A DNA stretch of 64,000 bases from Bacteroidia bacterium (GTDB taxonomy: Bacteria; Bacteroidota; Bacteroidia; NS11-12g; UBA955), in contig JAWKNQ010000008.1 of NCBI GenBank assembly GCA_041391605.1, positions 10,732 to 74,731 on the forward strand. The letters are read 5' to 3'. This document shows positions 36,234-57,673 of the stretch, in pieces (position 1 is the stretch's first letter; each line of letters begins with the position of its first letter). The notes beneath the pieces are model-generated. The model was not told the origin of the DNA and did no database searches. It was given only the letters and a program-made list of their open reading frames with translations. The translations under genes were made by a program, and so were the position numbers.

Positions 36234-36584
36234 TATAAATTGAACTTAAATATACTCATCTCCGAATTCAAATATAAATCATTAGTTTAAAGTTTGCTAT
36301 CTTTTGAATATTATTCATGGTATTTTCAATAACACATATTAAGAAAACATACTCTTTGATGCTCGCTAACGCATCCCACCACAACATACCAAGAAACTAC
36401 CCTTCCACAACCTTATTAATTAGCAAAACTCCTAACAGTCTGTCGTAACTATAAATAGGTATTTTGGGGAAATAAAGGGGTAAAAACTTGTTTATGTTGC
36501 CCGTAAGTTTGAAATTGCAAATCAAACACTTACAAACACTTGAATTGCTTAATCAAAAAGAACACAAGCAATTAAATCAACCCT

Positions 36585-39067: not shown

Positions 39068-39120
39068 AGAAACGAAATGAAGCAATGCAAGACAAGCAAA
39101 CGACCGAATAAAAAAACATC

Positions 39121-39252
39121 TGCTAACAGCATCTACCCAAAAGTGGCGCTTCAGTGGTTAAATCAAGCTTTGTGCTACTATCAAAGTTTGTGCTTGGTTG
39201 ACAGTGAAGTGCTTCGAAATCGCCACCTTCGGGTAGCTGCAAAACGTTAGAA
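39121..39252 (+). mobile_element. candidate integron attC site 1 (132 bp)
   Basis: It has a 5' inverse-core-like TGCTAAC and a 3' core-like GTTAGAA. The imperfect inverted arms are GCATCTACCCAAAAGTGGCG / CGCCACCTTCGGGTAGCTGC. It starts 53 nt after the stop of the preceding ORF. Confidence 0.65.
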
Positions 39253-39285
39253 GACAGTTTAAAACAACCAGATTAAAGACAAAAA

Positions 39286-39921: not shown

Positions 39922-39929
39922 AAACCGTC

Positions 39930-40061
39930 TTCTAACAGGCGTTTGGCAAAAAAGCGGGTTTAGTGTTTAATTGAAAAATCTACCTCGTATCAACTTTTTT
40001 GTTGGGTTGACAGTTTTGTGCTTCGAAATCCACTTCTTCGCCAAGCGTCAAAACGTTAGGT
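39930..40061 (+). mobile_element. candidate integron attC site 2 (132 bp)
   Basis: TTCTAAC ... GTTAGGT is a perfect GTTRRRY core. The arms are GGCGTTTGGCAAAAAAGCGGG / CCACTTCTTCGCCAAGCGTC. It is gap-free colinear with site 1 and shares the central block GGTTGACAGT..GTGCTTCGAAATC and CAAAACGTTAG, but the arm sequences differ. Confidence 0.7.
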
Positions 40062-40071
40062 TCAAATAGAA

Positions 40072-40815: not shown

Positions 40816-40821
40816 ATCAGT

Positions 40822-40878
40822 AGCTAACAAAACCTATATGCAATGCTTCGGGACACTGCTATAGCCAAAACGTAATAA
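40822..40878 (+). mobile_element. candidate short attC site 3 (57 bp, degenerate 3' core)
   Basis: AGCTAAC-AAAAC-CTATATGCAATG...CACTGCTATAG-CCAAAAC-GTAATAA. The arms pair as CTATA(T)GCAATG / CACTGCTATAG with one extra T. The 3' core is GTAAT rather than GTTRR. Confidence 0.45.
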
Positions 40879-40880
40879 TT

Positions 40881-41615: not shown

Positions 41616-41620
41616 TGGCA

Positions 41621-41665
41621 ACCTAACAAAGGGAAATTGCATATTATTATCGCATTTTGTTAGAG
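41621..41665 (+). mobile_element. candidate short attC site 4 (45 bp)
   Basis: ACCTAAC (a perfect RYYYAAC) -AAAGGGAAATTGCAT...ATCGCATTTT- GTTAGAG. It starts 5 nt after the stop of the DKNYY ORF and is shorter than classical attC sites. Confidence 0.4.
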
Positions 41666-42045
41666 TTGAAAAATACACCATCAAACTAAATACTTGCGTT
41701 AAAATTTGTAAAAGCTCCCGTGAAGTTCTTAATTGCATATCAATTACTTGCAAACACTATATATACTGCTTAAGATTGAAAGCAAAAGCAATGAAATCAA
41801 GTTTAGCATGTACCGATGTGGGAATTGGATAGGAAAATGGGATAAGCACCATTGGTGCGATTTTATTGATGTCCTAAATAAACATAAAACCAAACAAATA
41901 GAAAGACAGCAAAAAACCTCTAATGCAAAAGAAAAGTCAGTAGTAAAAATTGTCCATCTACTTGCGTAAATTATCCATTTTAAGAATATATATGTCATAT
42001 CATCTTTGCATCGTCAATGATGACATACATTAAAAAAAAATACAA

Positions 42046-42579
42046 ATGGTAAATTTTAAAGTTCCAAGCAGAGGAGAAGTATCTGCGAACAATCAAGAGA
42101 TTTTTGACAATCTAAACAAGGGTCTAGGTATGGTTCCTAACCTTTATGCAGTTATGGCACTATCTGATACAGCCTTAGAAAATTATCTTGCTTTCCAAAA
42201 TGCTAAAACCACTTTTTCAAACAAAGAAAAGCAAGCAGTTAATTTAGTTGTTAGTCAAGCTAATGAATGTCACTACTGTCAATCTGCACATACCTTATTA
42301 GGTAAAATGAATGGTTTAACTGAAGAGCAAACAATTGAAATTAGAAAAGGAAATGCTTCTTTTGATATTAAATTGAATGCCTTGGTTATCCTCGCAAAAG
42401 AAATAACTTCAAAGAAAGGCTTTGCTTCAACTGAAGCTGTGGATGCTTTTATAGAAGCTGGTTACTCAAAAGGTCAAGTTGTTGAATTGGTATTTTTAGT
42501 TGCAGAAAAAACTGCAATGAATTATGTTCAAGCGATTACAAAGGTGGAAATAGACTTTCCCCTTGCTGAAGAAATATAA
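42046..42579 (+). CDS. carboxymuconolactone decarboxylase (AhpD-like) family protein
   Basis: 177-aa ORF with ECHYCQSAHT, the CxxC-type core motif. Confidence 0.8.
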   Translation: MVNFKVPSRGEVSANNQEIFDNLNKGLGMVPNLYAVMALSDTALENYLAFQNAKTTFSNKEKQAVNLVVSQANECHYCQSAHTLLGKMNGLTEEQTIEIRKGNASFDIKLNALVILAKEITSKKGFASTEAVDAFIEAGYSKGQVVELVFLVAEKTAMNYVQAITKVEIDFPLAEEI

Positions 42580-42585
42580 TTAAAT

Positions 42586-42625
42586 AAAGGGATTACCTTA
42601 TTTCCTTTAAGGTAATCCCTTTTTA
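42586..42625 (+). terminator. rho-independent terminator
   Basis: AAAGGGATTACCTTA-TTTCCTT-TAAGGTAATCCCTTT (15-bp stem) followed by TTT. Confidence 0.85.
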
Positions 42626-42639
42626 AAACAAATAGAAAA

Positions 42640-43056
42640 ATGGAAAATATACGACACCCGATTCCCCCATTTAACATGGATACTGCTTTAAAGAAAGTGC
42701 AATCAGCCGAAGACACCTGGAATACAAAAGACCCTGAAAATGTTTCAATGGCCTACACTCTTGATACAGAATGGAGAAACAGAACCGAGTTTATAAATGG
42801 CAGAAATGAAGTTAAACAATTTCTAAAACGAAAATGGGAAAAAGAGTTGAAATACAAACTCAAAAAGGAATTGTGGGGGTTTCGAGAAAATAGAATTGCA
42901 GTTCGTTTTGAGTATGAGTGGCACGACATTAAAGGTCAATGGTTTCGTAGCTATGGTAATGAACTTTGGGAGTTTGACGAAAACGGATATATGAAAAAAC
43001 GATTTGCGAGTATTAATGATTTACCCATTAAAGAAACAGAACGCAAACTAAAATAA
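42640..43056 (+). CDS. DUF1348 (NTF2-like fold) family protein
   Basis: 138-aa ORF with [40 protein letters not shown]...RIAVRF.YEW. Confidence 0.7.
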
Positions 43057-43068
43057 TATCTTTGTAAA

Positions 43069-43945
43069 ATGACAAACCAAACAGTTTTCACATTGATAAA
43101 TCCTCAAAACGGAAACTTAGCATTTAAGCTTTTTTCATTTCAAGACAATTGTTATTTTGATCACATTCAACGTAACAATTACTATTCACTTATTTGGTTT
43201 ACACAAGGTAGCGGAAAAGTAAAAGTAGATTTTTTGGAATATGATTTTATTGCAAATAGTTTATTTGCATTTTCGCCATATCAACCCTTTATGTTGTCCA
43301 GATAATAATACAATTGGTGTCGCTTTGCAATTTCACCCTGACTTTTTTGCATTCACAAACATCAGGCAGAAGTTGCCTGCAATGTGCGTACTATTTAATA
43401 ATATTTACGCTCCACCATTTATTACTATGGACAAAAATTCCGCGTCAATATTTGAAATGTTGTTGAGCCAAATGAAAGCCGAAATGCAGAATCAAGAATT
43501 AGCACAATATGAACTATTAATTTCATACTTAAAAATATTTTTAATTAGAGCATCACGACTTAAAACTGAACAAGATCCACAGACATTGCAAGCAATCGCT
43601 CACATAAAAGAACCTTTTATCCTTCAAAGTTTGAAAGAAGCTATTGAAAAAGATTTTAAAACAAAACACTCTGCAAGCGATTACGCAAAAACATTAAACA
43701 TTTCATCCAAAGCTCTAGCCAAAATTACTAAGGCACATTTTAATAAAACGCTAACAGATTTAATTTCAGAAAGAATAATTATTGAAGCCAAACGAGAATT
43801 GTATTTAACCAACAAAACAGTAAAAGAAATTGCTTATGAATTGGGCTATCAAGATGAATACTATTTTAGTCGTTTCTTTAAAACCAATGCCGATATTTCA
43901 CCACAAATGTATCGTGATACAGTTGGATTTGGACGAGGTGTATAA
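43069..43945 (+). pseudogene. AraC family transcriptional regulator, single frameshift as assembled
   Basis: ORF 43069-43305 is the cupin-like N-terminus. ORF 43241-43945 carries the C-terminal HTH (SASDYAKTLNIS...EIAYELGYQDEYYFSRFFK). The frames meet near 43298-43301 (FMLS|DNNTIGVALQFHPDFF), where there is a 1-nt excess. Confidence 0.8.
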
Positions 43946-44218
43946 ATGAAATTAAAACAGTATTCTTCATCAAATGAAGATAACAAAACAAACATCCTCG
44001 GCTAAACACACCAGTACCTAACTGGTTTTTTGCAATAATGAGATATTTGTACTTAATTTGAGCATTGTACTTATAATGAACTGCGGTGCTAAATTGAAGG
44101 TTTGTTCTTCGGTTTCCCCATCTTCATATAGTTTGAAAACGTATTTCAAACTAATTAAATTTAAATTCCTGTTTATTGTAATCCATACCAAGAAAAACCC
44201 AAGTGAAAACCAAGACTC

Positions 44219-45073: not shown

Positions 45074-45125
45074 ATTCGGATTTCTGAATCAGATTTTAGG
45101 TATAAAAAATAAACTCTAAATATAT

Positions 45126-45153
45126 GGTTAACAAAACTAGAAACAAACTATTG
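45126..45153 (+). promoter_or_regulatory. conserved island motif, instance H (partial)
   Basis: GGTTAACAAAACTAGAAACAAACTATTG lies about 58 nt upstream of the 45211 start and matches the first half of the motif. Confidence 0.4.
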
Positions 45154-45210
45154 AAAACAAAAAACCCTAATCAACTCGGTCGATTGAACAACTTATAAGA
45201 ATTACTCCCA

Positions 45211-46131
45211 ATGAAACGCCTAGTTCTATTCACGCTCATTCATACATTGCTTGCTCAAATTTCAATTGCACAAACCGTTAGCGATTTTGATGGTAATGTG
45301 TACTCAACTATTCAAATTGGTAATCAAACTTGGATGAAGGAGAATTTGAAAACAACCCACTTCAATAATGGAGTCCCTATTCCAAGTACTACATCAAATG
45401 TATTGGTCGACTCGACTTCTTTATTTCAATGGGCTTACAACAACGACACCTCTAATATCCCAATTTACGGAAGACTTTATACATGGTTTGCAGTTGTAAA
45501 CGCCCAAAATGTTTGCCCAAGCGGATGGCATGTTCCAGATAATTCAGAATGGGTAGAATTAAGTAATTTCTTAGGAGGGGACACCGTTGCAGGAGGAAAA
45601 ATGAAAGAAACTGGACAAACACATTGGGCCCTTACGGATAGCTCGGTCGACAATTCTAGTCAATTTACTGGTCTTCCGGCTGGCTTTCGCGGCAATCCAT
45701 CTGGTTTCAGTCAACTTACTACTTTAGGAGCCTTTTGGAGCACTACACCATTTGGAAGTAGCTCATTTCAAAGAGGCTTTAGATATGAATTAAAAGCGGG
45801 GAACAGTCAATTCACGGAAAATATCGCAGTTGCAAACTGTGGTTTCTCGGTTCGATGTATAAAAAACGCAACTACAAAACTTGATGACGTAGAGATGAAG
45901 AGCACAATACAAGTCTTTCCAAATCCAAGCTCAACAAGTCTTCAAGTGTCCAAAGAAAAACAGAATGTCTTAGCCTACTACATATACAATGCAGAAGGAA
46001 AACTAATCGTTCATGAAAATATATTTAATGCACTTGAACCTATTCCAGTACAAACATTAGAAAAAGGAATATACATCATCCGCATAGTTTTTAAAGATTA
46101 TGAAATTGAACGCAAATTTATAAAGGAGTAG
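45211..46131 (+). CDS. FISUMP (Fibrobacter succinogenes major paralogous) domain protein with T9SS C-terminal domain
   Basis: DFDGNVYSTIQIGNQTWMKENL, YGRLYTW, CPSGWHVPDNSEW and GLPAGFR. The CTD is VFPNPSSTSLQV...GIYIIRIVF. Confidence 0.8.
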   Translation: MKRLVLFTLIHTLLAQISIAQTVSDFDGNVYSTIQIGNQTWMKENLKTTHFNNGVPIPSTTSNVLVDSTSLFQWAYNNDTSNIPIYGRLYTWFAVVNAQNVCPSGWHVPDNSEWVELSNFLGGDTVAGGKMKETGQTHWALTDSSVDNSSQFTGLPAGFRGNPSGFSQLTTLGAFWSTTPFGSSSFQRGFRYELKAGNSQFTENIAVANCGFSVRCIKNATTKLDDVEMKSTIQVFPNPSSTSLQVSKEKQNVLAYYIYNAEGKLIVHENIFNALEPIPVQTLEKGIYIIRIVFKDYEIERKFIKE

Positions 46132-46225
46132 TAAATAGGAAAATCATAACAATTAAAACTATGAGCTGAGGTGATTGGGGTTTATTAATGGATAAAAGAG
46201 GCTTTTTATAGAATTAGCAAATTAG

Positions 46226-46263
46226 TTTGGAGAACAAAACTAGAAATAGGAAATTGCAGAAGG
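46226..46263 (+). promoter_or_regulatory. conserved island motif, instance A (reference copy)
   Basis: TTTGGAGAACAAAACTAGAAATAGGAAATTGCAGAAGG ends 54 nt upstream of the 46318 start. Confidence 0.8.
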
Positions 46264-46317
46264 AAATGAATTCATTCCGCAAATTTAAATTGACATTAAA
46301 AATTGTAAATCAATAAA

Positions 46318-48102
46318 GTGAACTTGAATAAACTTGTATTAATTTCTGTTTTCTTAATTCAAAACTGTATTGGTTTATTGAGTCAAAACAAAAGCTTTCA
46401 TTCGAAAGAACTGACTAAGCATGAATTGTCCAACATTGCAGCCTTTGCCAAGTTATATGGCTATGTTAGACATTTCTACCCTTCCACTGAGGTAGAAGAA
46501 ATGAGGAATTGGGAACAACTGATAGCAGTTAACCTTCCATACATAGAACAGTCGCAAGATGTATTGGATTTGAAAAGAAACTTTATCCAAATATTCTCAC
46601 CTTATGCACCACTTTTAAGAATTAATGACACTATTGATTCTGTATATAAATTCCCTCAAAAACAATACATTGTTTATAGAAAAAATAAAGGCTGGGGAAA
46701 TAGAGGAGAAAATGCCACTCGAGTTAATTTTATTTACACATCAGAATTAATTTGGGTTCCAATAGACAGTGTATTGCCTGATGGCATCCTATCTCCAAAC
46801 CAAAGATTAAATAAAAAAGTTAACAACGACATTAGCATTTCATGGCCTATGTCGGTTTATGCTGATGACAGCTTTACACTTCCTCATAATTCAGCTTTTA
46901 AACTTGATACAAGCAAATACAACTTCACGGTCGAAAACAGATTTGTTAGAATGGGTTGTATCATTGAATTGTGGAATGTTATGCAACACTTTTATCCCTA
47001 CATGGATGTCATGAAAATTCAGAATGATTCTCTTCTAGAAAAATACTTACAACTTGCATCTGAAGCACAAAATGAAAACGATTTCTTTCATATATTAGAA
47101 CTATTTGGGGCAGAATACAAGGATGGTCATGCGGCATTTATGCCTTATCCATATTCAAGTTGGGAAGATTATGTGCCTCCAATTCGCTTGGATTGGATTG
47201 AAAACAAATTAATAGTAACATATTCTGAATACAGCGACTCATCGAATTTAAAAGTTGGTGATGAAGTCATTTACATTGACTATATTTCATCAGAAGAATA
47301 TTTCAAGAACAAAAGTGCAAGAGTTTCATCAGCTACAGCCACATGGAATTCATACTATAGTTGTAAAGAGATACTATGCGGCAAACTAAATAGCACAATA
47401 TCACTTCAAATTAAAACCGAAAATGGCAAAATTAGAACAAGAACATTCAAAAGAACTTTAAAAGTTGATGGACTAGAAAAAAAAGCAAATACAAGAACAC
47501 TTATCAATGAGTATTCTCCTGCTTATTATTATATTGACTTATGCAATTTAACTGATTCTATTCTCCAAGAATTAGAACAATCTATACTTCCTTTGGCAAA
47601 AGGAATAGTGTTTGATATGCGCGGATATCCCAGGATTCATGTAGAGAAATTATTTCGACATTTATACCAAGACACCATGTATTCTGCAATTTGGCAAATT
47701 CCAATTTCATATTTCCCAGATCAAGATAAGCGCAATGTGCAAATGGATACTTCAGGTCGGTGGATAATTGCTCCTTCCCTACCTCGATTCACGAATAATG
47801 TTGTTTTTATAATAGATGGCAGAGTGATTAGTGCTGCTGAAACAGAAATGGGAATTGTAGAAAACTACAAATTAGGCAAAATAATTGGTGAGCAGAGTGC
47901 AGGGACTAACGGGAATGTTAATTCGTTTAAAATTTACGGATTGTATATGTTTTGGTTTACAGGAATGAAGGTAATAAAACACGATGGAAGCAGACATCAT
48001 GGTGTAGGCATACTTCCAAATGTCATTGTCAAAAAAACCATTCAAGATGTAAGAGAAGGGCGAGATCCTTTCATTGAAACAGCAAAAAGACAACTGCATT
48101 AA
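46318..48102 (+). CDS. S41-family (tail-specific/C-terminal processing) peptidase-like protein
   Basis: 594-aa ORF with a GTG start and a signal peptide. It has IVFDMRGYPR and VVFIIDGRVISAAETEMG...GEQSAGTNG, which resemble the S41 catalytic-region motifs. Confidence 0.6.
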   Translation: MNLNKLVLISVFLIQNCIGLLSQNKSFHSKELTKHELSNIAAFAKLYGYVRHFYPSTEVEEMRNWEQLIAVNLPYIEQSQDVLDLKRNFIQIFSPYAPLLRINDTIDSVYKFPQKQYIVYRKNKGWGNRGENATRVNFIYTSELIWVPIDSVLPDGILSPNQRLNKKVNNDISISWPMSVYADDSFTLPHNSAFKLDTSKYNFTVENRFVRMGCIIELWNVMQHFYPYMDVMKIQNDSLLEKYLQLASEAQNENDFFHILELFGAEYKDGHAAFMPYPYSSWEDYVPPIRLDWIENKLIVTYSEYSDSSNLKVGDEVIYIDYISSEEYFKNKSARVSSATATWNSYYSCKEILCGKLNSTISLQIKTENGKIRTRTFKRTLKVDGLEKKANTRTLINEYSPAYYYIDLCNLTDSILQELEQSILPLAKGIVFDMRGYPRIHVEKLFRHLYQDTMYSAIWQIPISYFPDQDKRNVQMDTSGRWIIAPSLPRFTNNVVFIIDGRVISAAETEMGIVENYKLGKIIGEQSAGTNGNVNSFKIYGLYMFWFTGMKVIKHDGSRHHGVGILPNVIVKKTIQDVREGRDPFIETAKRQLH

Positions 48103-48179
48103 AAATCTACTGAATAAGCATTCAAAACAACTAAAACCAACTAAGTTCTTTTACAACCTATAAATTAAATATACAATAA

Positions 48180-48217
48180 TTTGGAGAACAAAACTAGAAA
48201 TAGGAAATTGCAAAGTG
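48180..48217 (+). promoter_or_regulatory. conserved island motif, instance B
   Basis: TTTGGAGAACAAAACTAGAAATAGGAAATTGCAAAGTG is identical to instance A over the first 34 nt. It ends 17 nt upstream of the 48235 start. Confidence 0.8.
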
Positions 48218-48234
48218 AAAATTGAATCAACTCA

Positions 48235-49374
48235 ATGAAAAAACTTCTTCTTTTAAATGTCTTATTCCTACTCTCCACAGTTTCGTATGCTCAGAATCTT
48301 TCTCCGCTAGGTGAACTTGAAAATATAGAAACGTATGAAGTCCATGATTATGCAAAGTATAAAAGCTTAACTGAATTGACAAAGGATGTAGAGTCTGATT
48401 CTATAAAGAGTCTACTATTTCACGATCAAAGTAAATTCCCTACTGGTCTTGGCAAGCTTAAAAACCTGCAAAGTGTAGAGTTCTATTCCTGTGAGGATTT
48501 AAATTACAGCGACTTATTAAAGGAATGCCTTAAGCTTAATCATTTAATTGAGTTAACTCTTTCTGGTCTATCAGAACAAGAATTTCCTCTCGAAATTTAT
48601 CAACTCACTAAACTTAAAAAACTGACGCTTGCTGGAAATAATTTCAAGACCCTTCCTACAGGTTTGGATAAACTTAGCAACTTAGAAATTCTTATTTTAG
48701 GTGACCATCTAACAGGAGGCAACGATATCCAGACTTTCCCTCAAGAAATAGTCAATCTTAAAAACTTGAGAATTCTCAGCTTGGTAGGGAATACTGAGCT
48801 TATCCTTGATAGTAATTTTTATGGCTTACATCAATTAGAAGAACTCAATTTGAGTTTTGTATCGAATTTAGATTTTAATAAAACTTGTAATTCATTTCCC
48901 AACCTAAAAAAACTAATTATAACCGGAATAGACCAAAGGACATGGGAAGGCATCTCAGGTTTAAGTCAATTGGAATTTCTTTCAATGGATTACGATTCTG
49001 AATTACACAGTTTAGGTAAAGATTTTTCAAAGTTGTCTAATTTAGAAACATTGGATATTCACATAGATAGTCAGTTAAACTTTAATGAGGAGATTGCAAA
49101 AATTGCCGCATTACCTAAACTTAAGTCGCTATCACTTACAATTACCAATCGCGAAAAGTTTGAATTACCGACGGATGGATTTAAATCTCTACGGATGCTA
49201 AGAATAGACAATAGAACTAAAACAAGTATAAGTCAAGTTATTGAAATGGTATCCCAATACCCGAGTTTGGAACGTCTAGATTTGATGCTTCGATTTCGCA
49301 ATCTTACCCATGAAGAAGAGATTGCATTACAGAAACTGTCAGAAACAATTGAGGTGGTAGGATTGAAGAATTAA
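48235..49374 (+). CDS. leucine-rich repeat (LRR) protein, secreted
   Basis: 379-aa ORF with a signal peptide and tandem repeats of the type L..L..L.L..N. Confidence 0.8.
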   Translation: MKKLLLLNVLFLLSTVSYAQNLSPLGELENIETYEVHDYAKYKSLTELTKDVESDSIKSLLFHDQSKFPTGLGKLKNLQSVEFYSCEDLNYSDLLKECLKLNHLIELTLSGLSEQEFPLEIYQLTKLKKLTLAGNNFKTLPTGLDKLSNLEILILGDHLTGGNDIQTFPQEIVNLKNLRILSLVGNTELILDSNFYGLHQLEELNLSFVSNLDFNKTCNSFPNLKKLIITGIDQRTWEGISGLSQLEFLSMDYDSELHSLGKDFSKLSNLETLDIHIDSQLNFNEEIAKIAALPKLKSLSLTITNREKFELPTDGFKSLRMLRIDNRTKTSISQVIEMVSQYPSLERLDLMLRFRNLTHEEEIALQKLSETIEVVGLKN

Positions 49375-49608
49375 GAGTAATATTTATTAAATTGATATCT
49401 AATTTGATTGGAGAATCAAAAAGAATTGAAGAAACCTATTAAATTAATTGCCATACTTGAGAAAAGCTACTACTACAAAACACGAATAAGTGATACATGC
49501 ACTTCGCAAATTGCTATGACGACTAAAAAATATATTATTAGACAAAATGACGAATAGATACTCTTAATAAAATAAATCTTAAAACGTTAGGAAATCAAGG
49601 ATAGATAA

Positions 49609-49624
49609 TAGAAATTGCAGAAGG
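49609..49624 (+). promoter_or_regulatory. conserved island motif, instance C (second half only; the first-half-like GATTGGAGAATCAAAAAGAA lies about 200 bp upstream at ~49405)
   Basis: TAGAAATTGCAGAAGG ends 51 nt upstream of the 49676 start. It is preceded at 49582-49592 by AAAACGTTAGG, the same string that ends attC sites 1 and 2. Confidence 0.45.
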
Positions 49625-49675
49625 AACAGGTTTGAGTTAACAATAGAAATTTAAATAATAAAGAAAGTTCATTCG

Positions 49676-50395
49676 ATGAAATTGACATCAATAAATAGCC
49701 TTTTGCTTTGGTTAATCATCTTTACCGCTTGTTCTCCAAATAGATCAGAAGACAATTTAAAGGTTAGCAAATATTGCGCAAATGAAATAAGTCTTTTTTC
49801 AGTTCCAGACTCCCTTCAAAGTATAAAAATAGACTACAGTTTGAAGCCTGATTCATTTTTTAACACCATCGCAAATAAACTTAACAAAGATTTATGTTGG
49901 AAAATGACAAGTTTCGGATTAAAGTTAAACACTAGTGAACCTATTAAAGTTCAACTTTTTGACAAATGTGAGGATGGAATAAATAGATGTGGATTTCGCA
50001 GACCTGAAGTTAGAATTCTATTGAACCAAACTGGCAAGTTAATGATTGAACGTGATATTATTCCTATAGATTCAGTCAAATACTGGATCTATAAACATTT
50101 CCCAAATAGTGTAGAATATGATTTGGAAGAAATCTCATTTGAATGGGCAATTGAAGCAAATAAAGATAGTATAGAAAAAGTATTTTCCAATATCATTGAT
50201 GGATATTTATTGAAATATGAGAAACTGGCTAAGGTTTCTTTCTCAAAAAACATTTGCAATATATCCAAGTCACAAGTAGACAGTTTAAAATCAATTCTTC
50301 CTTTTAAAGTAAGATTAGGGATAAAAAGGATAATAAAACTCCCCCCAATCCCATCTTCAGAAAAATTAAAAACTAAATATAAACTAGATAAATAA
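49676..50395 (+). CDS. hypothetical lipoprotein
   Basis: 239-aa ORF with the lipobox IIFTACSP. Confidence 0.5.
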   Translation: MKLTSINSLLLWLIIFTACSPNRSEDNLKVSKYCANEISLFSVPDSLQSIKIDYSLKPDSFFNTIANKLNKDLCWKMTSFGLKLNTSEPIKVQLFDKCEDGINRCGFRRPEVRILLNQTGKLMIERDIIPIDSVKYWIYKHFPNSVEYDLEEISFEWAIEANKDSIEKVFSNIIDGYLLKYEKLAKVSFSKNICNISKSQVDSLKSILPFKVRLGIKRIIKLPPIPSSEKLKTKYKLDK

Positions 50396-50413
50396 AGAAA
50401 CAATCAAGAAAAC

Positions 50414-51037
50414 ATGATAAATAAATTTTTAAAAGCAAAGCATTGGCAATTATTTCTTATGACTTTTGGGATACCATTGGTGATTCATTCAATCGTAATG
50501 GCGACTATAATTGAAAAATTAGAATCCAAAGTCAACCCAGATCCTGAACTTCTATTCAACTATCTTCAAATTTTCACCTTAATGATGATACTTTTCATGG
50601 CTGTTTTCCTTGGGTGGTTCTGGTCGGTGGCTATTGGATTACAAAGACTAATTCCGAGTAATTTAAAATTGAATGTCAATAAATTTAAAGTTTTTCTTTT
50701 AATTCCAGCGGTTTACATTTTACTTTTTCTTGCATATTTCATGACGGCTTTCACTGCTGGAAACCCAGTATTAGGGATGTTTTTTATAATCATTCCTCTT
50801 CATTTGTTTTCGATGTTTTGCTTATTCTACTGCCTATACTTTGTTGCTAAAACTATAAAAATAGCAGAATTAAAACGTCAAGTTTCCTTCGGCGATTTCG
50901 CAGGAGAATTTTTCTTAATATGGTTCTACCCAGTTGGAATTTGGATTGTTCAACCAAAGATTAATGCTATGATGAAGGAAATAGAAGATAATACTGATGA
51001 CAATTTGAACATAAATCAACACCTTAAGTCTTTTTAA
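50414..51037 (+). CDS. hypothetical integral membrane protein
   Basis: 207-aa ORF with 5-6 hydrophobic helices. Confidence 0.5.
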   Translation: MINKFLKAKHWQLFLMTFGIPLVIHSIVMATIIEKLESKVNPDPELLFNYLQIFTLMMILFMAVFLGWFWSVAIGLQRLIPSNLKLNVNKFKVFLLIPAVYILLFLAYFMTAFTAGNPVLGMFFIIIPLHLFSMFCLFYCLYFVAKTIKIAELKRQVSFGDFAGEFFLIWFYPVGIWIVQPKINAMMKEIEDNTDDNLNINQHLKSF

Positions 51038-51073
51038 TTACACCTAGCTTACAAAGAAGAATTACTAAAAACC

Positions 51074-51101
51074 TTTAGAATTCAAAGTAGAAATTGCAAG
51101 G
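51074..51101 (+). promoter_or_regulatory. conserved island motif, instance D (shortened)
   Basis: TTTAGAATTCAAAGTAGAAATTGCAAGG lies about 90 nt upstream of the 51193 start. Confidence 0.45.
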
Positions 51102-51192
51102 AATTTCATAGATCGCAAACCAAAGGTATTTGATTGCTTCTTTCATTAGGAAGATTAATAGATGCAAAACAAAAACAATTAAATAAATATAA

Positions 51193-51759
51193 ATGGAAAA
51201 ACACAAGGTAATTGGCATTGTAATCCTAGTGATTCTGATGTCCTGCAATTCAACGAAAAAATCGATTTCCTCAACTGATGAAACAGTAAATGAAGTTTCT
51301 GAATTTGAACGCATATACGATGATCAATTTATTAATGTAATCCCTACTCTTCAATTACCATTTACAATTAATTGTGGTCATGTCGAATTTATTATGGATG
51401 AAAGTTCTAGAGAAAACTTAAGACCATTTTGTCCAGCTGGATACAATTTAATAGGAAAGATTGGGACAAAAGGCACAAACAATTTAGTGCTTTATATAGA
51501 AGATAATCCTGAGGCTAAACCTGTCCTGACTATCACAGACAATGCAGGAACTAATATGAAATTTTATAGTTTATATAAAAATCCGTGTTATGAATCAGAT
51601 ACAGTTGCTTTTTACTCTACCGCAACCATTATTTCCGACAAGTTAATTTCAATTGAAAATTCAATGGTGTTTAAAAATGGGCTTCGCGACTCAATGATAG
51701 TCAGAAAAAAAGCACTTGATATCATAAACACCGACATACTTGAAAGAAATATCGAATAA
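51193..51759 (+). CDS. hypothetical lipoprotein
   Basis: 188-aa ORF with the lipobox ILMSCNS. Confidence 0.5.
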   Translation: MEKHKVIGIVILVILMSCNSTKKSISSTDETVNEVSEFERIYDDQFINVIPTLQLPFTINCGHVEFIMDESSRENLRPFCPAGYNLIGKIGTKGTNNLVLYIEDNPEAKPVLTITDNAGTNMKFYSLYKNPCYESDTVAFYSTATIISDKLISIENSMVFKNGLRDSMIVRKKALDIINTDILERNIE

Positions 51760-51763
51760 GTAA

Positions 51764-52300
51764 ATGGGTTTTGGCTTTTATATACTATTTGTATTTGTTG
51801 TTATTCCTCTGACAGTAGTCCTTGGAGTAATTTGGTTGCTTACACATAATAGAATCTACGGTACCATGATTGCCATTGTCTGGCTATTGATTATAGGACT
51901 CGTTTTGTTTGTCTTGACCGCTAATTTTTTCACAGCACCAAAAAGCATTACAAAGGAAGACATTTATGGCGAATATGTAATTGATCGAGACAAATACCCC
52001 GGTTATCAAGCGGATTGGCAATACAATCATTTTCGTTTTGAGATTACCAAAGACAATGCCTTTGTTTTTCATGAAACGGATAAAGACAAAATCACAAAGA
52101 CATATACAGGTACTGTTTCCTTCAGAGAATCAAATGTTGCCCCGAGAATCACGCTCCACGTCGACTTACCTAGAAACCATATTATCGAAAATGAGCCAAC
52201 ACTTTATCGAAAAGCATTCTCGTTTTACTATGTCTTTAAATCGCCGAAATTTGGAAACGTCTTTTTCACAAAGGGGAAATGGAAACCCTTTGAATACTAA
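51764..52300 (+). CDS. hypothetical membrane-anchored protein
   Basis: 178-aa ORF with two N-terminal TM helices. Confidence 0.5.
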   Translation: MGFGFYILFVFVVIPLTVVLGVIWLLTHNRIYGTMIAIVWLLIIGLVLFVLTANFFTAPKSITKEDIYGEYVIDRDKYPGYQADWQYNHFRFEITKDNAFVFHETDKDKITKTYTGTVSFRESNVAPRITLHVDLPRNHIIENEPTLYRKAFSFYYVFKSPKFGNVFFTKGKWKPFEY

Positions 52301-52315
52301 ATATTTGTCAAATGG

Positions 52316-52354
52316 TTTGGAAAACATCAATGGAAATAGAGAATTGTATAGGGG
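52316..52354 (+). promoter_or_regulatory. conserved island motif, instance I
   Basis: TTTGGAAAACATCAATGGAAATAGAGAATTGTATAGGGG lies about 78 nt upstream of the 52433 start. Confidence 0.55.
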
Positions 52355-52432
52355 AATTAAAATACACTTATTATTCAGAACAGAAGAGAAAAACAAAGTG
52401 ATACAATAAGTAGATTATTATTTATATAAGAA

Positions 52433-52912
52433 ATGCAAGATTCATTTAACACTAATTTGAAAGAATACTTTCTTGAGATGAAAAAATTAGTTCAAGATAA
52501 AAGTGACTTAAAAACTTTAACAGAGTTGTTAAGTAATAATTCATTCACAGAAACGAAACCATATTTAACAAGACGAAAATTGAATGCGGAAGACAAAAGG
52601 TTTAAATACATTGAACTAGTTTATGAATCTCCTGAACAAGTTGGGAAAATTTTCTGGCACTTAGACATCAATCTTTCAAGATTAATTGAATATTTTGGAA
52701 ACCCAAGATTTCATTTTACTCCACACGGAAACTCAACAAGCATAGGCTTCTTTGATGTTGAAAATCAATTTACTGGGTTTGAAACTCGTTACCCAGGAGA
52801 AGTAAATGTCAAAGGCAGTAAATATGAGGTTATCCACGAAAAGGGCTTAACAGAACTAAAAGATGAATTAAATATATCATTTGTCTCTTATTATATTGGA
52901 AGCGGACTTTAA
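52433..52912 (+). CDS. hypothetical cytoplasmic protein
   Basis: 159-aa ORF with no signal peptide and no recognisable family. Confidence 0.5.
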   Translation: MQDSFNTNLKEYFLEMKKLVQDKSDLKTLTELLSNNSFTETKPYLTRRKLNAEDKRFKYIELVYESPEQVGKIFWHLDINLSRLIEYFGNPRFHFTPHGNSTSIGFFDVENQFTGFETRYPGEVNVKGSKYEVIHEKGLTELKDELNISFVSYYIGSGL

Positions 52913-52927
52913 AATTACCAATGTAGA

Positions 52928-52964
52928 TTGGAGTGCAGAAATGGAAACAGCAAATTGCAGAAGG
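52928..52964 (+). promoter_or_regulatory. conserved island motif, instance E
   Basis: TTGGAGTGCAGAAATGGAAACAGCAAATTGCAGAAGG is followed at 53002-53008 by GTTAGAA, which lies 10 nt before the ATG at 53018. Confidence 0.55.
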
Positions 52965-53017
52965 TGCTGGTAATTGAGCAAAGTCAAGTACTTATAAACA
53001 AGTTAGAATATTTAAAA

Positions 53018-53701
53018 ATGACAATAAAACAAACTTTATATTGGATCTTGATTCTTTTTTCAATAAGTAGTTGTGAAAGAAATCAAATTTCTAACGAGAA
53101 GATCCTATCTGATATATTTCCTCAATTAATTGACAGTTTATATATAAAGTGGAACCCTATACCACCTCCACCTCATAGATCTATTTACGACAAGGATTCA
53201 AATATAATTGGTATAGATTCAATGCAATTGAAATTTGACCTTGCAGCATATCAAAAATTTTTAAACAGATTTGACTCATTAGATTCAAGAACAATGATTG
53301 GTATAAAAGATTCTTGTTTTCTTATTGATTGGAATGATTTGAAATCCAGAAATTATAGTGAAGATATTCAAATAAAGAGAATTTTAGAACTAAGCAACAG
53401 TAAATCAAAAGAATCAAATAAGTTAAATCTGAATCAGATAGATATTCCAAATGATTTTAAGTTAATTTCAGAATCAGAAATCACAAAGAATTATCCATGG
53501 ATTTGGAAAAATTCGAAATACTATAAGATTGCTGGAAAACTAGAAACATCAAAAATATATCTCACAACAAACAAGAAATTCGGAATTTTGCAAGTGAATT
53601 ACAGATGTGAGTACTGGTGTGGATATGGGTATTATATTTTAATTGAAAAGACAAATGAAAAATGGTATGTGAAAAGAATATTGCCCATGTGGGTTTCTTA
53701 A
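53018..53701 (+). CDS. hypothetical lipoprotein
   Basis: The track ORF starts at 52928 inside the motif. The internal ATG at 53018 gives MTIKQTLYWILILFSISSCERN, a signal peptide with a lipobox. Confidence 0.55.
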   Translation: MTIKQTLYWILILFSISSCERNQISNEKILSDIFPQLIDSLYIKWNPIPPPPHRSIYDKDSNIIGIDSMQLKFDLAAYQKFLNRFDSLDSRTMIGIKDSCFLIDWNDLKSRNYSEDIQIKRILELSNSKSKESNKLNLNQIDIPNDFKLISESEITKNYPWIWKNSKYYKIAGKLETSKIYLTTNKKFGILQVNYRCEYWCGYGYYILIEKTNEKWYVKRILPMWVS

Positions 53702-53758
53702 ATAACACGTTTACCAATTCTTAATGAAAAATAATCTAAAAAATTTATTGCGTAGTCG

Positions 53759-53795
53759 AGTAACTACACTTACATTTGTAGCCAAGTAACTACAC
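53759..53795 (+). promoter_or_regulatory. putative ArsR-type operator (direct repeat)
   Basis: AGTAACTACAC occurs twice (53759-53769 and 53785-53795, 26-bp spacing), with TGTAG in between. The second copy abuts the arsR-like start codon. Confidence 0.35.
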
Positions 53796-53796
53796 A

Positions 53797-54129
53797 ATGA
53801 ATTTAAGAAGAGATGTATTTCAAGCCATAGCAGATCCAACACGACGAGCAATTCTCCTTTTGCTTACTTCTCAATCGATGACCGCTGGGGCAATCGCTTC
53901 CAACTTCGACACCGCAAGACCTACAGTTTCAAAACATCTTCAAATATTAACTGAATGTGAACTTCTTAAACAAGAACAACAAGGCAGAGAGGTATATTAT
54001 CACTTCAACCCAAAGCGAATGAAAGAAATTGCAGATTTCTTAGAACCCTTCCGACAACATTGGGATAGTAAATTCAATAAACTTGAATCTGTCATGAAAA
54101 AACATAAACACAAATCGAATGGAAAATAA
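53797..54129 (+). CDS. ArsR/SmtB family transcriptional regulator
   Basis: [16 protein letters not shown]...[24 protein letters not shown] winged helix-turn-helix. Confidence 0.88.
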
Positions 54130-54583
54130 AACACATATTAATGCCGAAGAAGGCAGACAAGATCTACTCATCACTCGTGAATTTGACCTGCCTCTTGAAT
54201 TGTTATTTAAAGCTTACTCTGAAGCTGAATTTATAGAAGAATGGATGGGCACAAAAGTTGTAAAACTTGAAAACAAAATTCATGGAAGCTATCAATTCGA
54301 AACTTCACACAACGGTAAGTTAGTCTTTAAGGCACATGGAACTATTCACAATTTTGTTTCCAATCATTGCATAACTCGAACCTTTGAAATGGAAAACATG
54401 CCTATAGGTGTTCAACTTGAATTCTTGGAATTTGAAGCACTTACAGCAAACACAAGTAAACTAGGAATTCATATTATTTATAAGTCGGAGAAACATCGAG
54501 CCGAACAACTCAAACTCCCATTTGCATACGGACTTAATATGGCACACAACAAACTTCAAGAACTTTCAATTAATTTAAAATAA
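54119..54583 (+). CDS. SRPBCC (AHSA1/START-like) domain protein
   Basis: 154-aa ORF overlapping the arsR-like gene by 11 nt, with a typical L.ITREFD.P.ELLF.A....E....W start. Confidence 0.75.
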
Positions 54584-54584
54584 G

Positions 54585-54962
54585 ATGACAAAAAGAAATA
54601 AAATTATTTACTGGATCTCCACTGCCCTACTTTCCTTTGGAATGTTAGGAAGTGGTATTTCACAAATTCTTCATCTTGAAGAAATGAAGGAATTAATTGC
54701 TCACGTAGGTTACCCGATGTATTTTATGTACATCATTGGTATATGGAAAATACTTGGAGTAATTGCGATTCTCATACCAAAATATCCCCTTTTAAAAGAA
54801 TGGGCTTATGCTGGGTTCTTTTTTGTGATGTCTGGAGCTTTAATCTCTCATTTATTTATGGGCGACAGCGGTAGTGCTGTTTTTGGACCCTTGTTTCAAA
54901 CTATTTTTGTAGTGTTATCTTGGTATTTTAGACCCGAAGACCGAAAATTAAAGCTAAAATAA
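54585..54962 (+). CDS. DoxX-like membrane protein
   Basis: 125-aa ORF with 4 TM helices and KEWAYAGFFF. Confidence 0.7.
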   Translation: MTKRNKIIYWISTALLSFGMLGSGISQILHLEEMKELIAHVGYPMYFMYIIGIWKILGVIAILIPKYPLLKEWAYAGFFFVMSGALISHLFMGDSGSAVFGPLFQTIFVVLSWYFRPEDRKLKLK

Positions 54963-54972
54963 TCACGGCAAT

Positions 54973-55551
54973 ATGAACCCTGAACTTGATTGGTTTTTTA
55001 ACAAAACTTCTAAATGGCAAGAAGCTTATTCAGAATTGAGAGCACTTGTGCTTTCCTGCAAACTAAGTGAGGAACTCAAATGGGGCTGTCCATGTTACAC
55101 CAACAACTCCAATAATATTGTTTTGATTCATGGCTTCAAAGACTATTGTGCTTTACTGTTTATGCAAGGCACATTATTGAAAGACCCTAAAAAGATATTA
55201 ATTCAGCAAACACGTAATGTGCAAGCGGCTAGGCAAATTCGATTTAAAAACTTGGAAGAAATCATAAAGCATAAGTCGACCATAAAACTGTATATAAAAG
55301 AAGCTATTGCAATAGACAATGCTGGCTTAAAAGTAATCTATAAGCCAACCAAAGAATACGAGATTCCTGAAGAGTTCAAAACGGTTTTAGATGAAATGCC
55401 AGAACTAAAAAAGGCCTTTCAAGCTCTTACACCCGGACGACAGCGAGGGTATTTGCTTTATTTCTCATCAGCCAAACAAGCCAAGACCAGAGAATCAAGA
55501 ATTGAAAAACACTTGCAACATATACTGGATGGGAAAGGATTAGATGACTGA
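54973..55551 (+). CDS. YdeI/OmpD-associated (DUF1801) family protein
   Basis: LKWGCPCYT and a C-terminal LTPGRQRGYLLYFSSAKQAKTRESRIEK. Confidence 0.75.
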   Translation: MNPELDWFFNKTSKWQEAYSELRALVLSCKLSEELKWGCPCYTNNSNNIVLIHGFKDYCALLFMQGTLLKDPKKILIQQTRNVQAARQIRFKNLEEIIKHKSTIKLYIKEAIAIDNAGLKVIYKPTKEYEIPEEFKTVLDEMPELKKAFQALTPGRQRGYLLYFSSAKQAKTRESRIEKHLQHILDGKGLDD

Positions 55552-56106
55552 TTAAACCATTTTAAATAATTGGTAAATAAAGCCATAAAGAAAAATAGAA
55601 ATTATCATTTATTAAATTATCTTTACATTAAAGAATTGAACTCCATAAATAGTAATTAAATGATTATCCTCGAAATAGTAATAGAGACATTGTTTTCAGA
55701 TATCATATGGGGTTCCATTAAACGAATTGGTTCTGGAGTGCGGTGGTTGATTCTTAATCGAAAGTACTCCTACAAGGAAATTTATAAACAAGAATGGAAC
55801 GGAAGAGTGGGAGTTTTAACTATTTGCATAATTGCTGCCGGTTTTTTGTTTTTCAACTTTTAAATCGAATCAGATCAAAACACCATTAATAACAATAAAA
55901 CCAATTCTCAACAGATCAGCCACCACAATTCATCACAAGAACTTATAAAAAAAGTTTACCAATGCTATTCTGAAAACATCTTAGTACATGAAACCGTTGA
56001 ATCTTCTAAAGTAAAATTTAACACAAGTAGTAAAGTCGAACTAAAGATACAGAATTCTCAATAACAAGCACAAAAGCTCATAGCAATTTCTTATGTAAAT
56101 AGTTGA

Positions 56107-56144
56107 TTTGGAGAAAAGAGAATAATGCAAGATATTGCAAAAAG
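56107..56144 (+). promoter_or_regulatory. conserved island motif, instance F (diverged)
   Basis: TTTGGAGAAAAGAGAATAATGCAAGATATTGCAAAAAG ends 15 nt upstream of the ATG at 56160. Confidence 0.45.
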
Positions 56145-56159
56145 AAAAAATTACTCCTT

Positions 56160-56855
56160 ATGAATATTGAACACTTAACACAGGATCAGATAAAACTTGA
56201 GCAAGCCAGTTTTATGACTAAAGTGTATGGCTGGATGTCTTTCGCTTTGTTAGTTACAGGCCTTGTTGCTTACTGGGTTTCTGTTACGCCTGAATTAATC
56301 ACTTTGATATTTAGCAATCGCCTTGTTTTTTACGGTTTACTTATTGGTGAAATTCTTTGTGTTGGGTATTTAGTAACCGTAATTCAAAAAATATCCGCTC
56401 GAACTGCAACTCTCATATTTATTGGATATTCTATACTTAACGGATTAACATTAGCTGTAATCTTTTTAGCTTTCACAAGTGCATCTATAACTACAACTTT
56501 TTTAATCACTGCAGGCACCTTTGGCATCATGAGCATTTATGGATATTACACCAAGCAAGATTTAACCACTATAGGCAATCTAGCGTTTATGGCATTAATT
56601 GGTCTTATCATTGCTTCTGTTGTCAATATGTTTTTTCAAAACGAAATGCTGTATTGGATTACCACCTATGTGGGCATATTAATATTCGTAGCACTAGTTG
56701 CCTATGATACTCAAAAAATAAAAGAGATGAACATCATTGGCAATGAAGGAACTGAAGAAGACAGAAAAGAGGCTATTCTAGGTGCATTGAGTCTATATCT
56801 CGACTTTATTAATTTGTTTTTACTGCTCTTGAGATTATTTGGAAATAGAAAATAA
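56160..56855 (+). CDS. Bax inhibitor-1/YccA family membrane protein
   Basis: The internal ATG at 56160 (MNIEHLTQDQ...FMTKVYGWMSFALLVTG) is preferred. The protein has 7 TM helices and a C-terminal LYLDFINLFLLLLRL. Confidence 0.82.
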   Translation: MNIEHLTQDQIKLEQASFMTKVYGWMSFALLVTGLVAYWVSVTPELITLIFSNRLVFYGLLIGEILCVGYLVTVIQKISARTATLIFIGYSILNGLTLAVIFLAFTSASITTTFLITAGTFGIMSIYGYYTKQDLTTIGNLAFMALIGLIIASVVNMFFQNEMLYWITTYVGILIFVALVAYDTQKIKEMNIIGNEGTEEDRKEAILGALSLYLDFINLFLLLLRLFGNRK

Positions 56856-56867
56856 GTGTTCTTTAAA

Positions 56868-56905
56868 TTTGGAGAACGAAACTAGAATTTGCAAATTGCG
56901 TGAGG
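56868..56905 (+). promoter_or_regulatory. conserved island motif, instance G
   Basis: TTTGGAGAACGAAACTAGAATTTGCAAATTGCGTGAGG ends 21 nt upstream of the ATG at 56927. Confidence 0.65.
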
Positions 56906-56926: not shown

Positions 56927-57645
56927 ATGCATAAATTCTCTTTATTTATACTTTTGCTTTTTGTCCCCATTTTGCTTTTTGCACAAGACTTTCAAAAACT
57001 TCGCATTCAGCATTTGAACGATAATTTTTATGTGTACACCACTTATAAAGATTTAAATGGATTTATGTTTCCGTCAAATAGTATGTATCTTGTTACTGAT
57101 TCAGGTGTAGTTCTTTTTGACACACCTTGGGACAGCACACAATTTCAGCCTTTACTTGACAGTATTCAAGCTAGACACAATAAAAAAGTTGTACTTGCGA
57201 TCTCAACACATTACCACGACGACCGAACTGCAGGACTAGAATTTTTGAAACAAAATGGCGTCAAAACTTACAGCTCTAAACTCACTTACAGCTTGTGTAT
57301 GGAACACCATGAAAAACAAGCCCAATTCTATTTTAATACGGATACTGTATTCACTATCGGAAACTATAAACTTGAAACCTATTATCCTGGGGAAGGACAT
57401 ACAAAGACAACATTGTTATTTGGTGCAGGCAAACAAAGTCCTATACAGAGGATGTTTTTAATAAAAAGCACGGAAAATAAAAACCTCAGGAGCCAGCTGA
57501 TGCAAATATGAGCGAATGGCCTTCAACAATTAAGAATGTTATGAAGAAATACCGCAAACCCAACTTTGTTATCCCAGGACATTTTGGATGGACCAGCAAG
57601 AAAGCACTGAAGCACACCTTGAAACTCTTGCGACAGAGAAAATAA
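56927..57645 (+). pseudogene. subclass B1 metallo-beta-lactamase, multiply frameshifted as assembled
   Basis: It has a signal peptide, HYHDDRTAG (the HxHxD zinc motif) and YYPGEGHTK. Within about 57400-57510 the conserved continuation is spread over three frames (DNIVIW / QANKVLYRGCF / LIKSTENKNL / ADANMSEWPSTIKNVMKKYRKPNFVIPGHFGW...LLRQRK*), which implies about 4 indels. Confidence 0.8.
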
Positions 57646-57673
57646 AACACTTCCAATTTAGCTCAATTAAAAC

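Follow-up and report, generated by a model that had tools for sequence, protein, structure and literature searches.

A 38-nt repeat before unrelated genes of an integron-type array in a Bacteroidia genome: a candidate promoter module

Why should genes that have nothing else in common be preceded by the same 38 nucleotides? The question is raised by a 64,000-nt stretch of contig JAWKNQ010000008.1 (positions 10,732 to 74,731) from a metagenome-assembled genome (MAG) of a Bacteroidia bacterium. The whole stretch is called the window here and is numbered from its first letter. Between 45 and 57 kb, in an island of co-oriented genes, a conserved 38-nt motif, designated M, recurs upstream of genes coding for unrelated proteins. 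A preliminary description, made from the sequence alone, read the motif either as a dedicated promoter or operator, or as a relic of cassette junctions. We favor, tentatively, a reading in which M is a shared promoter module at the 5′ boundaries of cassettes in a decayed integron-type array; we regard it as credible, though short of probable.

Copies and conservation of the repeat

The repeat has five robust copies, a sixth (49587) that is counted on its 3′ block only, and four more that are weak:

46226..46263, + strand: reference copy, TTTGGAGAACAAAACTAGAAATAGGAAATTGCAGAAGG; ends 54 nt before the start of an S41 peptidase gene (46318)
48180..48217, + strand: copy ending 17 nt before the start of a leucine-rich repeat (LRR) protein gene (48235)
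52927..52964, + strand: copy ending 53 nt before a lipoprotein start (53018); preceded by the R″ stub of the upstream cassette
56868..56905, + strand: copy starting 12 nt past the BI-1 stop and ending 21 nt before the start of a B1 metallo-beta-lactamase gene (56927)
52316..52353, + strand: more diverged copy, starting 15 nt past the upstream stop and ending 79 nt before a gene for a 159-aa protein (52433)
49587..49624, + strand: copy diverged in its 5′ half (TTAGGAAATC...) and exact over a 16-nt 3′ block; 51 nt before a 239-aa lipoprotein gene
45123..45160, + strand: weak copy, exact over a 14-nt core, AACAAAACTAGAAA, plus an ATTG block; before a Fib_succ_major/type IX secretion system (T9SS) gene (45211); nhmmer E = 37
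56107..56144, + strand: weak copy, end blocks only (TTTGGAG...ATATTGCA); ends 15 nt before the BI-1 start (56160); not significant
51074..51103, + strand: weak copy with the 3′ block GTAGAAATTGCAAGGAA and a spacer 8 nt shorter; before a 188-aa/178-aa gene pair; nhmmer E = 6.8
49407..49444, + strand: weak copy, 5′ block only (ATTGGAGAATCAAAAAG); starts 33 nt past the LRR gene stop; no nhmmer match

A hidden Markov model (HMM) built from the first six copies was run with nhmmer over both strands of the window and returned those six only, all on the + strand, with E values of 4e-9 to 4e-5 (3.9e-9 for 46226, 3.3e-8 for 56868, 4.7e-8 for 52927 and 1e-6 for 52316); the next match has E ~1. The same six members are also picked up by a repeat finder, and the 38-mer at 46226 finds no match in 100 dinucleotide-preserving shuffles. 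Because the HMM was built from the very copies it found, the search was rerun with each copy left out. This yields E values of about 5e-6 (4.7e-6) for 46226, 5e-5 for 48180, 9e-4 for 52927 and 2e-3 for 56868. The 52316 copy is marginal in this test (E = 0.08): it scores 10 bits, with the best unrelated match at 8 bits. The 49587 copy is not regained; its sole support is the 16-nt exact block GAAATTGCAGAAGGAA in common with 46226, for which base composition gives a chance expectation of ~7e-5. The preliminary description had counted at least nine copies. Five or six of these stand, whereas those it placed at 45126, 49405, 51074 and 56107 have nhmmer E > 5 or no match. It had also overstated by one nucleotide the identity between 46226 and 48180, given as 34 nt: the first 33 nt are identical, and the two copies agree at 35 of 38 positions, with 3 mismatches. 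The layout it reported is borne out. Every copy is on the + strand, and the copies end 15-89 nt before a start codon (15-90 nt had been given).

The per-column information content places abrupt edges of conservation at positions 1 and 38. G4, G5, C10, G18, G31 and G38 are invariant, and the best-conserved blocks are TTGG (positions 2-5) and AATTGC (positions 27-32). Between them, the spacer positions C10 and T16-R17-G18-A19 are kept even in diverged copies. The motif as a whole is asymmetric and carries purine-rich, heptad-like repeats (TAGAAAT/AGGAAAT). Copies occur singly, one to a transcription unit, and never between tightly linked genes; all of them fall within 45-57 kb, and none of the housekeeping genes within the window has one. 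A loose AnnTTGCR box is ubiquitous; AAATTGCA, when upstream and intergenic, hardly occurs outside the island.

For DNA outside the window, a 41-bit IUPAC pattern that fits five of the six main copies has no match in metagenome contigs. A 34-bit pattern gives 7 viral and 120 metagenomic single matches, none of them multi-copy and all at or below 17.7 bits, which is consistent with chance. No copy of M is present in the related metagenomic loci L015-L020 and L148-L151, and a literature search with the motif strings returned no match.

The proteins encoded downstream are mutually unrelated, as the preliminary description had held: all-vs-all BLASTP gives 0 matches, and the Pfam assignments agree. 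The latter cover most open reading frames (ORFs) of at least 90 aa plus the three + strand frames of 36.2-38.7 kb, with a few small ORFs and the − strand frames outside this set. Among island genes they identify peptidase S41, LRR, Fib_succ_major, BI-1, metallo-beta-lactamase and an ArsR operon, along with unknowns. Products downstream of M are mostly envelope or secreted proteins, and island genes reach 594 aa. The S41 peptidase gene sits between the two most similar copies of M (46226 and 48180); its best relatives are at most 35% identical and belong to other phyla. The interval between M and its start codon (46264-46317) contains a 16-codon upstream ORF (uORF), with its ATG at 46264 and a GGAAATGAATTCATTCC hairpin, that stops at a TAA 1 nt ahead of the GTG start codon. 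The B1 metallo-beta-lactamase gene (56927-57673) is frameshifted: its ORF stops at 57511, and the sequence ...NFVIPGHFGW... resumes in another frame. It is either a pseudogene or an assembly error.

The cassette array and its junctions

The region from 38600 to 44200 is an integron-type cassette array with no integrase in view, that is, a cluster of attC sites lacking an integron integrase (CALIN). Such clusters are defined by at least two attC sites in which R″ (RYYYAAC) and R′ (GTTRRRY) surround an imperfect palindrome that folds as single-stranded DNA, and the window contains them:

39121..39252, + strand: attC site 1, long (~130-nt) family, from R″ TGCTAAC to R′ CAAAACG/TTAGAA (GTTAGAA)
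39930..40061, + strand: attC site 2, long family (TTCTAAC ... AAAACGTTAGGT); E = 1e-45; weaker predicted fold
40821..40877, + strand: attC site 3, short class (GCTAACAAAACCTATATGCA...TGCTATAGCCAAAACG/TAAT), homologous to short attCs of L148 and L149; E = 1.4e-13
41622..41663, + strand: short hairpin CCTAACAAA...TTTGTTAGAG, candidate attC site 4; fold z = -2.8
44008..44142, + strand: attC site 5, long-family homolog, 3′ of an AraC-family gene; E = 1e-6 and 6e-28; poor fold

The bottom strand of site 1 forms the canonical long imperfect hairpin (-24.3 kcal/mol, z = -3.4). The hairpin at 41622-41663 is possibly a minimal or relic attC, and site 5 is probably decayed, given its poor folding; the AraC-family gene before it (43241-43945) belongs to the same array. 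From 38.7 to 44.2 kb, co-oriented ORFs are each followed by an attC. From 45 to 57 kb the ORFs are again co-oriented, with R″-like and R′-like remnants only and no match to the attC HMMs. All sizeable ORFs between 38.3 and 63.3 kb lie on the + strand, and kilobases 1-35 hold housekeeping genes, e.g. those for PNPase, guanylate kinase, FloA and an ABC-F protein. A complete integron would also have an integrase gene (intI) and attI beside the array. Pfam detects no integrase or tyrosine recombinase (Phage_integrase) in the ORFs scanned or in the + strand frames of 36.2-38.7 kb; as far as the window reaches, which leaves ~10.9 kb of the 74.9-kb contig outside, the island is therefore a CALIN.

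Just upstream of the first cassettes, the stretch 36234-38308 contains no ORF of 90 aa or more; its long + strand frames are broken by stops and have no Pfam match, which suggests a decayed gene. Further downstream, a TonB-dependent receptor looks split between a CarboxypepD_reg ORF (60068-60424) and a Plug/barrel ORF (60517-62304).

One gene flanked by M is demonstrably a cassette elsewhere. The 159-aa gene at 52433 has a copy of M on either side, and its homologs, 65-66% identical by tblastn, lie in long arrays of small, co-oriented genes whose functions are unknown. In these arrays the family is a clean cassette consisting of G/TTGGCAATAAT, a 24-nt leader, the gene and an attC with R″ TTGCCAAC. 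It is found with its own attC in three arrays (L017-L020; L148; L149-L151), as befits a mobile cassette. Part of this attC survives in the window, beside other blocks of similar kind:

52913..52926, + strand: R″ stub of the ancestral attC of the 159-aa gene, AATTACCAATGTAG, corresponding to ATTGCCAACAATGTAT in L017 and TTGCCAAC in L148/L149; abuts M at 52927
46144..46159, + strand: R″-like block TCATAACAATTAAAAC, soon after the upstream stop codon; no hairpin predicted

Blocks like the one at 46144-46159 are also found at 48119-48140 and 55884-55904, and all three are probably remnants of decayed attCs.

The junction after the 159-aa gene reads AATTACCAAT-GTAG-A/TTGGAGTGC..., i.e. the R″ stub followed by TTGGAG, the start of M, with the L arms and the loop missing. 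After the homolog in L148 the junction is ...CCAAACCG/TTGGAGGCAACC, with TTGGAGG to the right of the crossover. The copy at 49587, in turn, is directly preceded by the canonical R′ spacer of the array, CTTAAAACG/TTAGGAA (AAAACG/TTAGG). Because of the junctions at 52927 and 49587 we place the left edge of M at the R′ crossover, and M seems to start at an attC R′ half-site, G/TTGGAG. The attC R′ junction is the known element closest to M in position.

M is itself no attC site by the tests applied. With its flanks, it folds no better on either strand than shuffled sequences do, and the predicted pairs differ between copies. The HMMs of the long and short attC classes find 0 matches in 45-57 kb, and the M HMM matches no attC. 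When the 52927 junction was aligned with the orthologous attC of L017, 30 of 500 shuffles scored as well (p ~0.06). M resembles integron attC sites, and homogeneous families of them such as the Vibrio repeats (VCRs), in being repeated and co-oriented at junctions of an array with true attCs, and its first 6 nt look like an R′ half-site. It differs in having no imperfect palindrome, no R″/R′ pairing and no similarity to the attC HMMs of the array.

These results bear on an alternative that we consider unlikely, in which M has no function and is a relic, namely what is best preserved of an attC or junction repeat family that was once homogeneous and has lost its stems by decay or deletion; any likeness to a promoter would be coincidental. 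The block GAGAACAAAAC does resemble the R″-plus-spacer boxes GCTAACAAAAC of attC site 3 and GATAACAAAAC of site 5, and R″-like as well as AAAATTG/(T)AATCAA R′-like blocks stand beside several copies. The array also looks decayed (the poor fold of site 5, the 2-kb pseudogene stretch, the broken metallo-beta-lactamase and TonB receptor genes), and the scanned ORFs of the window include no integrase. Against this count the attC HMMs, the junction alignment and the folds, all negative; moreover, neutral decay would not leave abrupt edges, promoter geometry and one copy per transcription unit. The proposal of a cassette-junction relic in the preliminary description thus survives in part: true attCs are present in the window, one gene flanked by M is a cassette elsewhere and M appears to start at the place of an R′ half-site, but M is not attC-like. 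The likeness to the 5′ halves of sites 3 and 4, cited in its favor, finds no statistical support.

A further alternative, to which we give little credence, holds that M is an att-like recombination site of a gene-capture system other than an integron, with genes inserted or swapped between its copies. The model would be the rAID-1 arrays known from gut Bacteroidales (Ross et al., bioRxiv 10.1101/471110; PMC12247911), whose defining features are short genes in one orientation, a tyrosine recombinase and repeated motifs in the intergenic regions. The two sharp-edged, 33-nt-identical copies around the S41 peptidase gene, which has no close relatives, form the pattern expected of insertion by site-by-site recombination. 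The island shares with rAID-1 its co-oriented, low-G+C genes, its conserved intergenic motifs and its occurrence in Bacteroidota. It is set apart by recombinase and gene content: no XerD-like recombinase is in view, and the genes are not immunity-like and are up to 594 aa long. By Pfam, no immunity family occurs among the island genes scanned, specialised immunity profiles not having been run. The likeness to such arrays put forward in the preliminary description is accordingly not supported. Double-strand core sites of tyrosine recombinases are normally dyad-symmetric, and M has no dyad symmetry, which speaks against such a site. Nor did the metagenomic and viral pattern searches find a second array bearing M.

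Promoter likeness of the repeat

Three canonical promoters of the form TTG-N19-TAnnTTTG occur in the window, at 12876, 17300 and 53748. In M, the TTG at positions 2-4 and the TTG at positions 29-31 are 24 nt apart, which is the spacing of these three promoters. Genes with M have no canonical TAnnTTTG promoter. The ArsR-AHSA1-DoxX-YdeI operon (ArsR, 53797), the only island operon without M, has one: at 53748-53796 a canonical TTG-N20-TACATTTG promoter overlaps a repeated, palindromic AGTAACTACA operator-like sequence.

The canonical -7 consensus is not found in M itself, whose copies read G/C/A-A-A-A-T-T-G and have no TA at the consensus offset. A closer counterpart is the class SM5 of Flavobacterium psychrophilum, TAnnTTGY at -12 to -5, described by Guérin et al. 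(PMC9723704), who confirmed it by mutating the remFG-sprCDBF promoter. The remF sequence is TTAGAAACTTGCAG, and the strongest promoters of this species have a TTTG box at -33 (PMC9723704). The 3′ block of M, ATAGGAAATTGCAG, resembles the remF sequence. All six main copies have the SM5 core, with A at -11, TTG at -8 to -6 and a pyrimidine at -5, in the form nAAATTGC or nAAATTGT; in the weak copy at 56107 it is nATATTGC. The T at -12 is absent from M, as it is from the validated remF promoter. M is thus like SM5 and other Bacteroidota promoters with a -33 TTTG element in its TTGC(A) core, the A at -11, the canonical distance of the -33 TTTG and its closeness to remF. It is unlike them in the missing T at -12, in a conserved spacer and in copies that are clustered in one island, not dispersed.

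These likenesses allow a mechanism to be outlined for the promoter reading that we favor. Each transcription unit in the distal part of the CALIN (45-57 kb), where the attCs have decayed, would have M at its 5′ boundary. The first 6-7 nt, TT(T)GGAG, would be at once the right half of the attC R′ core site and the Bacteroidota -33 TTTG element, and positions 25-32, nAAATTGC, a -7 box of the TAnnTTGY type. With C32 at -5, T1-G4 would fall at -36 to -33 and the start site at positions 37-38; transcription beginning near positions 37-39 would leave leaders of 15-80 nt. On this view a single promoter, running from the -33 element to +1, takes up the whole of the conserved 38 nt, and it would explain why there is one copy per transcription unit, why none occurs between tightly linked genes and why the distance to the start codon varies. 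In this way M would supply transcription to cassettes that are normally promoterless in integrons. Its copies would descend from a common ancestor, most recently the pair around the S41 peptidase gene. The known elements closest to M in putative function are the cassette-internal promoters of integron arrays and the flavobacterial SM5 or sigma-A promoters.

Several observations weigh against this proposal. The -7 box lacks the T of TA and has ATTG for TTTG, so that M is not a canonical sigma-A promoter. A promoter needs no conserved spacer, yet C10 and T16-R-G18-A19 are conserved; together with the 33-nt identity of two copies, this suggests that the copies have a common origin, were copied recently or bind a further ligand. 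The promoter could also be read in a second register, with nTAnTTTGG at the left edge of M as its -7 box. Only the junctions at 52927 and 49587 speak for an R′ half-site, and in 49587 it is the 5′ half that has diverged. Finally, by the rules of integrons everything to the right of G/TT belongs to the downstream cassette; these rules do not account for 32 nt that unrelated cassettes have in common on that side of the crossover.

The conserved spacer is the starting point of an alternative that seems to us quite unlikely, somewhat more so than a relic. M would be the operator or recognition site of one dedicated factor (an alternative sigma factor, possibly of the extracytoplasmic function (ECF) type, or an activator of the AraC or response-regulator type), the island a single regulon and the conserved spacer positions the contacts of that factor. 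The persistence of C10 and T16-R17-G18-A19 in diverged copies, the asymmetric, 38-nt, heptad-like architecture, an AraC-family gene in the same array and a preponderance of envelope or secreted products all fit. However, no sigma or anti-sigma gene and no dedicated regulator was found among the window ORFs scanned, M has no CGT -10 element of the ECF type, and regulons are usually dispersed and not gathered within 12 kb. A sigma-54 promoter (TGGCAC-N5-TTGC) was also considered and rejected: the GG-to-GC spacing is 12 nt and not 10, and the GG of such a site is not conserved, TGG being present in two copies only. Of the dedicated promoter or operator put forward in the preliminary description, then, the promoter part gains from the -33/-7 spacing and the likeness to SM5, while no dedicated factor was identified among the ORFs scanned.

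The second register underlies another alternative, which we regard as improbable. Here nTAnTTTGG at the left edge would be a -7-like box with a start near position 10, M would be mostly a transcribed 5′ leader, and positions 10-38 would act in the RNA, for instance by affecting its stability or processing or by binding a protein at the GGA/purine-rich repeats. In four of eight copies a TA stands one or two nt before TTTGG/TTGG, L148 has TATATTTGGATAG/TTGG, a canonical -7 box, at a cassette boundary, and the + strand is purine-rich and predicted to be unstructured. Against it stand a TA that is not kept across the copies, the lack of any conserved fold or uORF, and an interval of anything from 15 to 89 nt between M and the start codon. 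Rfam 15 gives 0 matches at gathering thresholds over the whole window, and 0 even at E <= 1 over 44.9-57.1 kb, so the reading of M as a known RNA family was set aside.

Two other candidates were tried and discarded. A uORF conserved within M is contradicted by the occurrence of an ATG in two copies only. A divergent − strand promoter would need TAGTTTTG, the reverse complement of CAAAACTA, which is found in three copies only; it has no -33 element, and no − strand genes lie nearby.

Related arrays and wider meaning

The arrays that hold homologs of the 159-aa gene also carry ParDE, HigBA and HepT/MNT toxin-antitoxin modules, DarT and Fic. Such gene content is typical of sedentary chromosomal integrons. 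Both the long and the short attC families of the window are present in L017-L020 and L148-L151. Two of these loci contain a ~125-nt module, unrelated to M, that precedes three different cassettes and carries a canonical -7 box, TATATTTG:

L017, 7243-7367, 9853-9979 and 11646-11771: copies of the ~125-nt module
L018, 3507-3631, 8755-8879 and 10546-10671: copies of the ~125-nt module

The module has a GATTGCCGC...GCGGCAATC hairpin, and by eye its copies begin ~16-20 nt past an R′-like GTT. Its distribution suggests that promoter-bearing units with no ORF can fuse to cassette starts in these arrays. Something similar may be seen at 52316. The ancestral 5′ end of the 159-aa cassette (TTGGCAATAAT...) seems to persist, degraded, ~94 nt 3′ of the first base of M, and M with ~55 nt that follow therefore has the look of an addition to the cassette and not of its original start.

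From this we derive a more specific proposal for the spread of M, of which we are doubtful, about as much as of the dedicated factor. The M-units would be, or derive from, short ORF-less promoter cassettes, or an att half-site with a built-in promoter, copied by the integron machinery before successive cassettes.

Two further features of the related loci were recorded. In L148, at 9960-10000, the first cassette stands beside a divergent mreBCD operon and is preceded by GTTAGTATATTTGGATAG/TTGGCAATAAT; the canonical -7 box abutting the cassette boundary makes this a candidate attI/Pc region. In L149, positions 15287-16046 hold five or six tandem ~125-nt repeats, each with an apparent 3′ part of a tRNA, adjoining an apparent tRNA gene at the end of the array. 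They look like repeated integration scars.

Elsewhere in the window, a non-coding repeat of at least 300 nt occurs in three copies (20561-20860, 20976-21275 and 23952-24251; 79-90% identity) that flank the guanylate kinase/NadD region. It has no Rfam match and no ORF above 56 aa, and may be an unknown RNA or a repeat element. At 32934-33395, ~13 or more tandem 21-nt repeats within the ORF 32745-33638 encode a protein of 7-residue repeats with no Pfam match.

Promoters carried by cassettes or lying within integron arrays are familiar from toxin-antitoxin cassettes and from the internal promoters of Vibrio chromosomal arrays. Like them, M would provide transcription signals between the cassettes of a co-oriented array, independent of the platform promoter Pc. 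The cassette promoters known to us are specific to individual cassettes; M, in contrast, is one 38-nt module common to five or more unrelated units, apparently starting from an R′ half-site, in a region where the attCs are decayed or deleted.

Among complete genomes, integrons are reported to be very rare in Bacteroidetes, where Néron et al. 2022 found a single complete one (PMC9024848). The array described here, from a Bacteroidia MAG, adds integron-type arrays to a phylum in which they are barely documented. If M is only a relic, its value is limited to the annotation of a decayed array. The general view is that integron cassettes have no promoter of their own and stay silent far from Pc, and the expression of distal cassettes in large chromosomal arrays is an open question, to which a shared promoter module at cassette boundaries would, if true, be a simple answer. 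Should the M-units prove to be promoter cassettes, with the ~125-nt module of L017 and L018 as a second example, chromosomal arrays of Bacteroidota would shuffle promoters as well as genes, waking silent cassettes.

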